Positions 59,769-64,000 of a stretch of 64,000 bases of DNA are shown in pieces. Within the stretch, counting starts at the first letter, position 1; the number at the start of each line of letters is the position of its first letter. The DNA lies in the sequence record NC_054930.1. One strand, written 5' to 3'. Origin of the DNA: Escherichia phage PP01. A program made the translations under genes and the position numbers. Below the pieces are notes generated by a model, which was not told the origin of the DNA, did not search any database, and saw only the letters and a list, made by a program, of their open reading frames with translations.

Positions 59769-60219
59769 AATCCACCACTATTAAATCAATATCAGGAGTA
59801 AACATGTCGATTAATTTAGAAACCTTATCCCAATCACCGCCAGCAATACCACAACCTATGCGTGGAATGTAAATTACTGGTTTAAACAAAAGGGTCTCTG
59901 CCTGTAGATTTAATTCTATCATGCAGTTTACTAAAGCACCATAATCAAGATTAGGACCCGGTTCGTATTGCGTATACAGGTTATAGCACATACTAAATCC
60001 TGTAGGATTATGTTTAAAAACAATAGACATATCGCCTAATTTATCACGAGAACCGTACTCGGTAGTAGTTTTATCTATTTCTAAAATTTTGGGATAGGCT
60101 CTTGCTAATTGACCCGCTACACCAGAGCCCATTGTGTGGAAGCAGTTGCATCCGTGCGCAATAATATTACCTTGAAGAAATAGGGCGACAATATCGCCCT
60201 TGATATATTTTACAATCAT
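59740..60219 (-). CDS. macro-domain-like protein (putative ADP-ribose binding/hydrolase)
   Basis: 159 aa; GDI...IAHGCNCFHTMGSGVAGQLA resembles the macro-domain nucleotide-binding core. Confidence 0.45.
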   Translation of the reverse strand: MIVKYIKGDIVALFLQGNIIAHGCNCFHTMGSGVAGQLARAYPKILEIDKTTTEYGSRDKLGDMSIVFKHNPTGFSMCYNLYTQYEPGPNLDYGALVNCMIELNLQAETLLFKPVIYIPRIGCGIAGGDWDKVSKLIDMFTPDIDLIVVDYESTLPASV

Positions 60220-60557
60220 CTAGTACTCAATCCTCGATTATAAGAATCTACCAAACGGTCAACCATTGAATGACAAGCGGCTTTATCTTTCTCCTCCGCA
60301 ACTGAACATTCTAAGGTATTCCACTTTTTAGCATATCGTTTTAACAATGTATCATTTTTATATCTGCTTGATTTATCTCTTTCTCCGTCTTTATATGCAT
60401 ATATTAATTTCTGCGCAAATTCAGCTTGGCATGCTTTATTTTTCCCACAATAATCCGCGGCAGTACGGTTTACATACTCTCTAATTTCAGTATATGATGT
60501 ATCTGCTAACGCAGAAAATGAAATTAATCCTATACATAAAACCAAAATTTTAGTCAT
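60216..60557 (-). CDS. secreted small protein
   Basis: 113 aa; cleavable signal peptide MTKILVLCIGLISFSALA; four Cys. Confidence 0.5.
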   Translation of the reverse strand: MTKILVLCIGLISFSALADTSYTEIREYVNRTAADYCGKNKACQAEFAQKLIYAYKDGERDKSSRYKNDTLLKRYAKKWNTLECSVAEEKDKAACHSMVDRLVDSYNRGLSTR

Positions 60558-61095
60558 TTACTATTTCCAAAAGTTTATTATTTTTAAGGTAATTAGCCTT
60601 TTCTAGGACTTCAGAAGCATATTTAGAACCTGCTTTAACATTCCATCCCGAATTATAAGAGGATATCGCCTTTCTTATATCGCCCTTATGTATATTTAAC
60701 CAATAAGAAAGTTCAATGTACGCCCAGGAAGCTGAATTGGACCGTTTATTCAACATTCTTTTTATTTCAGCATCGGTCATATTATAACCAAGTTCCTTAA
60801 CTCTTGCTCGCATAGTCGGCAAATAATTTTGGAACATTCCATAGGCATGATGCTTTGGTTTAGATTTTAAATTAACTCCGGCAGAGCTTTCTTGCCATAA
60901 AATAGCAGCCATTATATGACCTAATCCGCTCTTATGGATATTTTTGTGTGTTTTATATTTTCCATCCTTAGAAAATTGTTCCCCGAATTGATACGCGTAA
61001 CGCATGTTATCGAGTTGGACATTACTGAAAGTATGCTCGGAGCTATGTGCCATCATAGAAATGGCCAATAGACCAGCGAGTAGTGCTTTTCTCAT
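60550..61095 (-). CDS. secreted lytic transglycosylase-like protein (SLT domain)
   Basis: 181 aa; signal peptide; catalytic E-S motif LWQESS...YGMFQ. Confidence 0.5.
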   Translation of the reverse strand: MRKALLAGLLAISMMAHSSEHTFSNVQLDNMRYAYQFGEQFSKDGKYKTHKNIHKSGLGHIMAAILWQESSAGVNLKSKPKHHAYGMFQNYLPTMRARVKELGYNMTDAEIKRMLNKRSNSASWAYIELSYWLNIHKGDIRKAISSYNSGWNVKAGSKYASEVLEKANYLKNNKLLEIVND

Positions 61096-61102
61096 GCTTA
61101 CC

Positions 61103-61564
61103 TCATTGAGTTTTAATTACTGCTTTAGAAGCCTTTCCTGGTAAACGACGACTGTTAATAATTGCCATCCTGCATTGAAGCGACGGGTCTTTGAACTTCG
61201 CATTAGGTTTACAAACTGTAAATCCAAGCCAAAGATTTCCATCTGTGATTTCTAAACGCCCAGGACGATATTCAACCCCATCAATAAAATCCTCGTCAAT
61301 GTCAGGACGCGGAGGCATACTCAGGAATTCATTAACTTCTAAAACATGGTCTTTTATTTTATGGAATAATTCAAAAACATATGTCTCATCAATCTCCCGT
61401 TGAATTGCACGATCAAGAAGATGTTGAGAATATTTTAGATGAAACGATGAGACCCCTGCTGCTTTTGATGCCTCACGAATCTCATTGTTAATTTGACGAA
61501 ACTCCGACTCAAAGTGACGACGGAGCTTATTTCGACGGATAAAAACTTCTATGTTGATAGTCAT
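61103..61564 (-). CDS. regB: RegB endoribonuclease
   Basis: 153 aa as in T4 RegB; basic; early promoter at 61592-61621. Confidence 0.65.
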   Translation of the reverse strand: MTINIEVFIRRNKLRRHFESEFRQINNEIREASKAAGVSSFHLKYSQHLLDRAIQREIDETYVFELFHKIKDHVLEVNEFLSMPPRPDIDEDFIDGVEYRPGRLEITDGNLWLGFTVCKPNAKFKDPSLQCRMAIINSRRLPGKASKAVIKTQ

Positions 61565-61591
61565 GTTATTCTCCTCTTAACTGATAGAAAA

Positions 61592-61621
61592 ATTATACCA
61601 CAGTCAAGAGGAAAAGTAAAC
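61592..61621 (-). promoter_or_regulatory. early promoter upstream of regB
   Basis: GTTTAC, 18 bp, TATAAT with TGG. Confidence 0.6.
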
Positions 61622-61623
61622 AG

Positions 61624-61944
61624 TTATTCTTTAAATCTAATCAATTTATTCATAGACTTTGAAACTTCTGCACGAACCTCATGTAGGTTTTTAAGCTGTT
61701 CAAGACGCTGCTCATAGTAAGCAATTTCATCTTCTTCGAGACAGTCCTGCGAATCTTCTTTAAGATAACGTGCATAGTCCTGGAAAGCTTTACGGACTAC
61801 TTCCTGGAAGTCATCAAGACTTTGAATTTTCTTAGGAGCAACAGATACACGACGAGGGGCAGTATAATATTCATAACCAAACCCTGCGCTTAATTGAGCC
61901 ATTAATATTTTTCCTCTGGTTGGAACACAGCACGACAAGCCCAC
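61624..61944 (-). CDS. hypothetical protein (vs.3 position)
   Basis: 106-aa ORF (likely start at internal Met). Confidence 0.4.
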
Positions 61945-62168
61945 ATACTGGCTTCTTTGAGTTTCGTTTTAGCAATAGTTAACTGATCGAGGCTTTCAGC
62001 ATAATTCTTTGCGAATTCACAGTCTTCACAATTATCTAGTGCTTCCCAGAATTCATCATACAAAGCATCAAAGATAAGTCCTAAACGAACTTCAGCATCT
62101 TTGATAGCATTCACTTTACCGATTTTCTCTTCAGTGTGCGGCTTATAACCTTTAATGTCTTCAATCAT
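61902..62168 (-). CDS. small helical protein (vs.4 position; candidate Acb2-like nucleotide sponge)
   Basis: 88-aa ORF; position counted from regB; identity inferred only from size and synteny. Confidence 0.4.
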
Positions 62169-62382
62169 ATTTTACTTCCTCGCCAGTACATAAATCATAT
62201 TCAACTAAACGAATAGGTTCATGAATGCCATATCCCTGAACAGAAATTTCTGTCGTAGGATAAATTCCACTAATATCACCCATGTTCCATGCTTCATTAA
62301 ATTGCTGTTCGCCTGAATTACTAAACCACTCGGCGAAAGCATTTAGCACATCTTTAGAACCTTCAATAATTATCTTTGCCAT
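62161..62382 (-). CDS. small hypothetical protein
   Basis: 73-aa ORF. Confidence 0.4.
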   Translation of the reverse strand: MAKIIIEGSKDVLNAFAEWFSNSGEQQFNEAWNMGDISGIYPTTEISVQGYGIHEPIRLVEYDLCTGEEVKYD

Positions 62383-62756
62383 TACAAGCTCTCAGTAAAG
62401 GTACGAGCGATAACGTCGCGCTGCTGTTCCGGAGTCAGAGAGTTAAAGCGAACTGCATAACCTGATACACGGATGGTCAGCTGCGGATATTTTTCCGGAT
62501 GCTTAACTGCATCTTCCAGAGTTTCACGACGCAGAACGTTAACATTCAGGTGTTGACCACCTTCAATTTTAACCGTAGGCTGTGGTTCAATTTCAATTTC
62601 ACGGGCATGCAAACCGTAGAAAATTTCCGGGTCTACAAAAGAGTCCTCTTTAAAGGTTTTAGAGACAATAATTCGTGCTTGAATACCATCTTCAAAATAA
62701 ATAGTACCTTTATGCGTGCCTTCAAGAATTTGATATGCTTTCATATAACCTCTCAA
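62382..62756 (-). CDS. autonomous glycyl radical cofactor (GrcA/YfiD-like)
   Basis: 124 aa; C-terminal 70 aa match the E. coli GrcA/PflB glycyl radical domain as recalled (RVSGYAVRF); locally GC-rich host-like codons. Confidence 0.8.
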
Positions 62757-63133
62757 TTAGAAAATAAATTTATCCAAGATTGCTCTTTAATTAAAAATGG
62801 CTCAGAATCATATGCCATTAAACTTTGGGTAATTAGTCCTTTAAAAGGCCCATCAATAAATTCCATGGTAAAATATGGAATTTTATTCATTAATCTTGCA
62901 TTAGGAGCCGTGCACAAAACTCTGCATCCTTTGAATACACCTTTTTGTAATTTGTATTGCTTAGGATAAAATTCGCTCAAGACGTTGTTATTTGCCAAAA
63001 TTTCAAAATGATTCACCAATTTATTTTTAATAGTTTTTGGCGAAAAATAAAGATATTCGAAAAGTTGCGTATCTGTCATCATTGCATTCCAATTACGAAA
63101 AACTGCGGACGAGTAATACCACCAATGCAACAT
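62753..63133 (-). CDS. hypothetical protein
   Basis: 126-aa ORF. Confidence 0.4.
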
Positions 63134-63618
63134 TTACTATTGCAACAGTAATGCACAGTTTCAATATGAATATCGTAAATTTTATCCATATCAGGAGCTT
63201 TAACAGGCTCATCAATTATATACAAAATTCGTGAAAGCGATAAACCTCTGAACTTACTTCCTTTATTGCCAATAAAACTACGCACAGAATCAGTAAATAA
63301 ACGAAAACGTATATCATCATTAGAATAACGCGAAAATTCCTTTTTAATGTTATTTGCAGAAATTTTAGCGTAAGCTGAAGTGTTAGAAAGAACAATAACT
63401 GTTCCACCATCATACAGCCAATTAGCAGCAAAGTTAGTCACAGCAGTTGATTTACCAGATTGACGTCCACCATCTAGTCGAAGTGTGCAATACTGTTTGA
63501 GTAAGTCTTCAAATGGTGGGATATAATCGTTTTTACAAATTTCTTCTACTCTAGCATCAGAATGGTGTGTAAAAGCATTCATCAGGGATAGATAAGGACC
63601 AGTTAAAAATGTTCTCAT
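63079..63618 (-). CDS. small P-loop NTPase
   Basis: 179 aa; Walker A GRQSGKST, Walker B LYIIDEP. Confidence 0.5.
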   Translation of the reverse strand: MRTFLTGPYLSLMNAFTHHSDARVEEICKNDYIPPFEDLLKQYCTLRLDGGRQSGKSTAVTNFAANWLYDGGTVIVLSNTSAYAKISANNIKKEFSRYSNDDIRFRLFTDSVRSFIGNKGSKFRGLSLSRILYIIDEPVKAPDMDKIYDIHIETVHYCCNSKCCIGGITRPQFFVIGMQ

Positions 63619-63770
63619 TTCTTCTCTCTAAATTTGGGCCATTCCGTGGCGCATGAATTGTCCATTTCTGTATTTACCCATTACCGCACTTGGGCTCGAC
63701 CTTATTACAGGTTGGCGGGAATCCCTCACAGAACCATGAGGTCCAGCTTGTTCCCATATTTCTTATTTGC

Positions 63771-64000
63771 TTATTTGAACGATTTAACGTACTGAATAGA
63801 ACCTTTACTATTCACAAAGGCAATTTTACCATTTTTGTTATACATGGTAGCAGTACGTTGATAGCCATAAGTTTGTTTACCAGATTGATAACCAACTAAT
63901 GCAAAATTATCTTCACCCATTTTATTCTGTTTAGCGCGAATGCGTTCATGACCATGTGCCATAAGAACCTTAGCATCACCAGTTGCAATGGATCGACGAG
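63771..64000 (-). CDS. hypothetical protein, 5'-truncated by window end
   Basis: Reading frame is open to the window edge; C-terminal 63 aa seen. Confidence 0.4.
   Translation of the reverse strand, partial: RRSIATGDAKVLMAHGHERIRAKQNKMGEDNFALVGYQSGKQTYGYQRTATMYNKNGKIAFVNSKGSIQYVKSFK

Follow-up and report, generated by a model that had tools for sequence, protein, structure and literature searches.

In the genome of Escherichia phage PP01 (sequence record NC_054930.1) we encountered, on the minus strand of the window (the whole 64,000-nucleotide stretch that was analysed), an 88-codon open reading frame that, judging from its deduced product, is the vs.4 (acb2) gene, encoding the known sponge of T4-like phages (Tequatrovirus). 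Taken as a whole, the assignment as a cyclic-dinucleotide sponge gene directed against CBASS in a T4-like phage appears to us almost certain. The preliminary description had placed this frame in the slot of T4 vs.4, and both its size and its synteny with the T4 reference (NC_000866, where the gene is 267 nt long) agree with that placement. The gene, its structure, ligand, mechanism and phenotype are already known, having been published since 2023 for the identical protein, and because the PP01 protein is identical to T4 Acb2 any novelty must come from the context. The gene and the features that adjoin it are as follows.

61902-62168, minus strand: vs.4 (acb2) coding sequence, 88 amino acids plus stop, predicted cyclic-dinucleotide sponge (from the open reading frame list, PDB 7UQ2, NP_049728, PF24729 and PHROG 717).
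62175-62181, minus strand: Shine-Dalgarno sequence of vs.4, GAGGAAG, read from the sequence.
61624-61902, minus strand: vs.3, 92 amino acids, directly downstream of vs.4, with a one-base overlap with the vs.4 stop as in T4.
62161-62382, minus strand: vs.5, 73 amino acids, directly upstream of vs.4, with a full-length match to PHROG 1986.

The vs.4 frame runs from an ATG at 62168-62166 to a TAA at 61904-61902 (88 codons, 267 nt), and the GAGG of its Shine-Dalgarno sequence, at 62181-62178, ends 9 nt 5' of the ATG. The T4 counterpart of this element is annotated as 'pot. rRNA binding site (ORF 62.5)' in X04567.1. The stop codon of vs.4 shares one base with the start codon of vs.3 (TAATG), and the TGA stop of vs.5 falls 8 nt within vs.4, inside ATGATTGA. 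These overlaps suggest that translation of vs.4 is coupled to that of its neighbours, and the location of the vs.5 stop within vs.4 suggests co-transcription of the two genes and, possibly, their translational coupling.

When all PDB chains were searched, the product matched 7UQ2 ('Vs.4') at 88 of 88 residues (E=1.9e-57), and no amino-acid differences separate it from T4 NP_049728. It also scores 71.4 bits against the Pfam family PF24729 'Acb2/Tad1 hairpin' (Acb2_Tad1_hairpin; gathering score 27), with an alignment that spans the whole profile (positions 1-58 of 58), and belongs with PHROG 717 (E=2.3e-32), the group used by Jenson et al. to gather Vs.4 homologs (PMC10097602). NCBIfam holds no model for Vs.4, Vs.5 or Vs.3. 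The alignment to T4 Vs.4/Acb2 that had been proposed as a check therefore shows complete identity, and the earlier identification of the product as the Acb2 sponge is borne out by these matches. A weak full-length phmmer match (E about 0.03) was obtained with the Acb2 of Pseudomonas phage PaMx33 (p26; PDB 8H2J and 8IXZ), in which Y8 and K23 of the PP01 protein align with Y11 and K26. The pocket residues Y8, H11, K23, S74, R79 and F82 are all located at their published positions in the PP01 protein and the hexamer-interface residues L29, F33, A66, A73 and A77 are all present, such that each feature of Acb2/Vs.4 that can be read from sequence (model score, identity with the founder, pocket, interface and synteny) was found.

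The DNA of vs.4 differs from that of T4 at 14 positions, all of them third-codon positions and all synonymous (94.8% nucleotide identity; Nei-Gojobori pS 0.284, pN 0), and comparison with four IMG/VR alleles gives pN/pS ratios of at most about 0.11. Fourteen synonymous differences with none that is non-synonymous exclude a chance frame and denote strong purifying selection, which confirms vs.4 as a genuine coding gene. Over 3.2-24 kb the best-matching phage records share 95-97.5% identity with PP01, and for T4 the figure in this region is about 95%, so that the window comes from a T4 relative and not from T4 itself. Homologs of vs.4 were detected by tblastn in 1,234 phage records with identities ranging from 100% to about 30%, most of them T4-like phages of Escherichia, Klebsiella, Shigella, Enterobacter and Yersinia, and among the records listed the product is mostly labelled 'hypothetical protein'. 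The small size of the frame (88 codons), the A+T-rich genome and the existence of a few relatives with frameshifted copies (loci L042, L045 and L046) might be taken to indicate that the frame is open merely by chance or that it is a pseudogene in decay, without function in PP01, but the substitution pattern, the homologs in so many phage records, the intact frame, the GAGG Shine-Dalgarno sequence and the overlaps with neighbouring genes make this scarcely conceivable.

Conservation of the vs.4 product was assessed with a single scan of IMG/VR, which returned 46 loci; 44 of these were extracted and represent 40 distinct sequences including PP01, 37 of them intact. Both hairpin arms (residues 1-36 and 66-88) show hardly any variation among the 40 distinct sequences. 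Residues Y8, H11 and K23 are conserved in all of these sequences, and S74, A77, R79 and F82 are invariant in 37/37 intact proteins. The interface residues are likewise kept (L29 in 37/40, A66 in 38/40, A73 in 37/40 and A77 in 37/40), with either Phe or Leu at position 33.

The middle of the protein (residues about 37-65, encoded at about 61974-62060 of the window) is hypervariable in the same 40 distinct homologs and contains indels; this segment lines the site of the cyclic-trinucleotide pocket in the PaMx33 Acb2. Three of the 44 loci (L042 2501-2972, L045 2501-2978 and L046 2501-2972) each carry a single frameshift in vs.4, beyond which homology resumes in another frame. Either errors in sequencing or genuine alleles that have lost the sponge may underlie these frameshifts, and loss of vs.4, if real, is expected to allow escape from Panoptes-type defences. 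The idea that the middle segment is under diversifying selection, imposed by ligand range or by host systems that detect the sponge in the manner of Panoptes, and that the frameshifts are natural sponge-loss escapes, is in our view unlikely. A weaker possibility is that Vs.5, as a conserved and overlapping upstream partner, acts together with Vs.4.

The properties of the protein have been established by others on the identical T4 sequence, including its hexameric assembly, stoichiometry, affinity, inhibition of CapV and knockout phenotype. Among T4 mutants that are sensitive to a Cap2-defective type II CBASS, vs.4 was the gene most often mutated, and knockout of vs.4 in T4 reduced the titre about 50-fold on a host carrying the Cap2-mutant CBASS (PMC10097602). 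Purified Vs.4 (residues 1-88) binds 3'3'-cGAMP with a Kd of 31 nM as determined by ITC, and the 2.0 A crystal structure reveals a hexamer, confirmed by analytical ultracentrifugation (AUC), with three molecules of cGAMP, each located between two subunits (PMC10097602). Within each pocket Y8 and F82 provide base stacking, and polar contacts are made by Y8, H11, K23 and R79; Vs.4 inhibits activation of CapV, an effect that is abolished by mutation of Y8, F82 or the interface (PMC10097602). Cao et al. obtained a Kd of about 84 nM for T4 Acb2 and a range of cyclic dinucleotides equal to that of the PaMx33 Acb2, for which Y11 and K26 are essential to cGAMP binding (PMC10312549). T4 Acb2 also sequesters 2',3'-c-di-AMP, which is both necessary and sufficient for the OptSE (Panoptes) defence to be triggered, and 14/15 T4 Panoptes escapers carry mutations exclusively in acb2/vs.4 (PMC12657218).

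T4 Acb2 acts as a sponge rather than an enzyme, because digestion with proteinase K releases the bound nucleotide intact (PMC12657218). In a crude assay an Acb1-like phosphodiesterase, removing the signal enzymatically and not by sequestration, would look alike, as free cyclic nucleotide would be depleted in both cases. It is nevertheless extremely improbable that Vs.4 is such an enzyme, given the recovery of intact 2',3'-c-di-AMP from the T4 protein, the presence of intact cGAMP in the crystal structure (PMC10097602) and the profile matches of the PP01 product, which are to the Acb2/Tad1 hairpin only and not to any hydrolase family.

As all of the residues named above are at the same positions, we expect with very high confidence that the sponge mechanism carries over to PP01. 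Vs.4 would be expressed from the early-region gene string that extends from vs.8 to vs.3, and six copies of the 10-kDa helical hairpin would then associate into a hexamer, leaving three pockets at the contacts between pairs of subunits, and each pocket is predicted to clamp a single cyclic dinucleotide, 3'3'-cGAMP or another. Base stacking by Y8 and F82, together with hydrogen bonds and salt bridges from Y8, H11, K23 and R79, would retain the signal, undegraded, with nanomolar affinity. As a consequence, the second messenger that the host CD-NTase (a cGAS-like enzyme) produces would, in its free form, stay under the threshold of the CBASS effector, for example the phospholipase CapV, and the infected cell would be spared suicide, allowing the phage cycle to be completed.

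With respect to ligand range, the preliminary description had proposed a test for binding of 3'3'-cGAMP and related cyclic oligonucleotides; for the identical T4 protein binding has been measured for 3'3'-cGAMP and cyclic dinucleotides (PMC10097602, PMC10312549) but does not extend to cA3 or cAAG, neither of which was bound in ITC or native gels (PMC10312549). It is very unlikely that the PP01 protein is a broad-spectrum Acb2 resembling that of PaMx33, in which a second pocket would sequester cA3 and cAAG as well, extending the block to type III CBASS, even though the two proteins belong to the same family and T68 corresponds to the cA3-contacting residue T74 of the PaMx33 Acb2. In T4 Acb2 the Arg that is essential for this binding (R67 in PaMx33) is replaced by D61, and a D61R mutant still does not bind; the pocket helix lacks a kink, which leaves the trinucleotide pocket too small (PMC10312549). 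The PP01 protein possesses D61, Y37, A57, L60 and T64, exactly as T4. Assignment to the PaMx33-like trinucleotide-binding subtype was accordingly rejected, with D61 at the position of R67 and T68 alone being kept.

The order of genes along the direction of transcription in PP01 (vs.8, vs.7, vs.6, vs.5, vs.4, vs.3, regB, vs.1, vs and tk.4) is that of T4 NC_000866, where regB is located at 62279-62740, vs.3 at 62800-63078 and vs.4 at 63078-63344 (minus strand, 267 nt). In PP01 regB is at 61103-61564 (minus strand), with vs.4 two open reading frames upstream of it with respect to transcription, and vs.4 occupies the early-region position conserved in the Tevenvirinae, from regB/vs.3 to vs.5/vs.6. 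A similar arrangement is found in the related IMG/VR loci, most of which have vs.5 adjoining vs.4 (vs.5 is upstream in 34 loci, and vs.3 downstream in 21). In the original T4 record (X04567.1) vs.4 appears as ORF 62.5, and the region is titled 'early region'. The gene string vs.8-vs.3, to which vs.4 belongs, is bounded at its 3' side by one further element, located downstream of vs.3:

61592-61620, minus strand: regB promoter, strong early-type, TTTACT-17-TGgTATAAT; the best site in the promoter scan (10/12), with an extended -10.

A -10 region is annotated at the same place in X04567.1. This was the only convincing site when positions 60500-64000 were scanned for sigma-70 promoters and terminators; the counts in this interval were not above those of shuffled sequences, no promoter specific to vs.4 was detected, and a promoter for the vs.8-vs.3 string was not located within the window. 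The MotA-box pattern TGCTTNA-N10-14-TANNNT matches 21 times in the whole window, against 7.9 expected (0/100 shuffles reach 21), and mostly on the minus strand, which is consistent with middle promoters of the T4 type; the interval from about 60 to 64 kb contains none of the matches. A scan of 60000-64000 against Rfam (E<=1) gave a single meaningless sub-threshold match to an lncRNA and thus no RNA element at the locus, and folding of the unusually G+C-rich segment at 63625-63745 (minus strand) gave no structure signal (z-score +0.98). Since the scans detected neither a promoter of its own nor a MotA box between 60 and 64 kb, vs.4 is most likely co-transcribed with the vs.8-vs.3 string from a promoter further upstream, possibly past the end of the window. 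We infer that vs.4 is expressed in PP01, with early timing and with co-transcription or translational coupling; as no promoter of the string was located, this timing and transcript structure are based on knowledge of T4 and on the 'early region' title of X04567.1.

Several observations were made on the genes upstream of vs.4. Vs.5 has 73 amino acids in PP01, in contrast to the 58 amino acids annotated in T4 NC_000866 (63381-63557), where the reference lacks one C (tgctttcg-cgag) and the frame is shifted. The 73-amino-acid form is also encoded by the independently sequenced T4 strain 147 (KJ477685, L050) and by 34 IMG/VR loci. Because of this distribution, and because the full-length protein matches PHROG 1986 from end to end, the 58-amino-acid T4 Vs.5 probably stems from an error of sequencing or annotation, or else from a frameshift specific to that lineage. 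The product of the adjacent vs.6 gene (62382-62744, minus strand) resembles GrcA, an autonomous glycyl-radical cofactor (66.8 bits against Pfam Gly_radical), as known from T4, from which it differs by only 1 non-synonymous change. Vs.8 (63079-63618, minus strand) has 179 amino acids in PP01, in line with the 177 positions of the PHROG 1488 profile, and is annotated with 219 in T4; the extra 40 N-terminal residues of the T4 protein correspond in PP01 to a separate 33-amino-acid open reading frame with a GTG start (63628-63729, minus strand), a stop codon lying between the two, which suggests that the T4 start is over-extended. Vs.8 also shows weak, sub-threshold similarity to a P-loop (AAA_14) and to terminase-like sequences. 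At the nucleotide level PP01 is homologous to T4 only as far as about 63759, and denV is not located beside vs.8. The gene extending from 63771 to the end of the window (minus strand) is represented by its C-terminal 63 amino acids, which belong to an internal virion protein family (DUF7412 / PHROG 3155).

The value of identifying vs.4 in PP01 is primarily one of annotation, as a product that records call a 'hypothetical protein' can be named with confidence. It adds a fully characterised anti-CBASS sponge gene to another T4-like genome and carries little weight as a discovery. PP01 is predicted to resist CBASS systems that signal through cGAMP or other cyclic dinucleotides, unless conjugation of the cGAS boosts the signal, and is predicted to be sensitive to Panoptes-type defences, which fire once the sponge takes up the decoy nucleotide.

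Amongst known systems the closest is T4 Vs.4/Acb2 itself, which PP01 resembles in the protein, its length, genomic slot, overlap with vs.3, Shine-Dalgarno sequence, and pocket and interface residues; only the DNA of the gene differs, by the synonymous changes described above, and the surrounding genome is that of a different Tequatrovirus. The PaMx33 Acb2 (Huiting et al. 2023, Cao et al. 2023) is, like PP01 Vs.4, a PF24729 protein that forms a hexamer with three dinucleotide pockets, and the Tyr and Lys residues aligned above correspond in spite of only about 24% identity. It differs in having an extra pocket for cA3 and cAAG that depends on R67 and T74, whereas the T4-type protein with D61 binds neither. 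More distantly, Tad1 (Thoeris anti-defence 1) has the PF24729 'Acb2/Tad1 hairpin' domain in common with Vs.4, by the definition of the Pfam family. Tad1 likewise forms oligomers that soak up nucleotide signals of immunity, but it is defined by sequestration of the Thoeris signal gcADPR, and the hairpin makes up only part of its sequence. The PDB sequence search with the vs.4 product (E<=1) gave no Tad1 structure. The second anti-CBASS protein of this phage group is Acb1, the product of gene 57B in T4, whose locus would fall outside the PP01 window. Acb1 achieves the same outcome as Vs.4, in that the cyclic-nucleotide signal is removed, but, in contrast to Vs.4, does so by enzymatic cleavage; the two are unrelated in sequence and differ in their ligand spectrum (PMC10312549).
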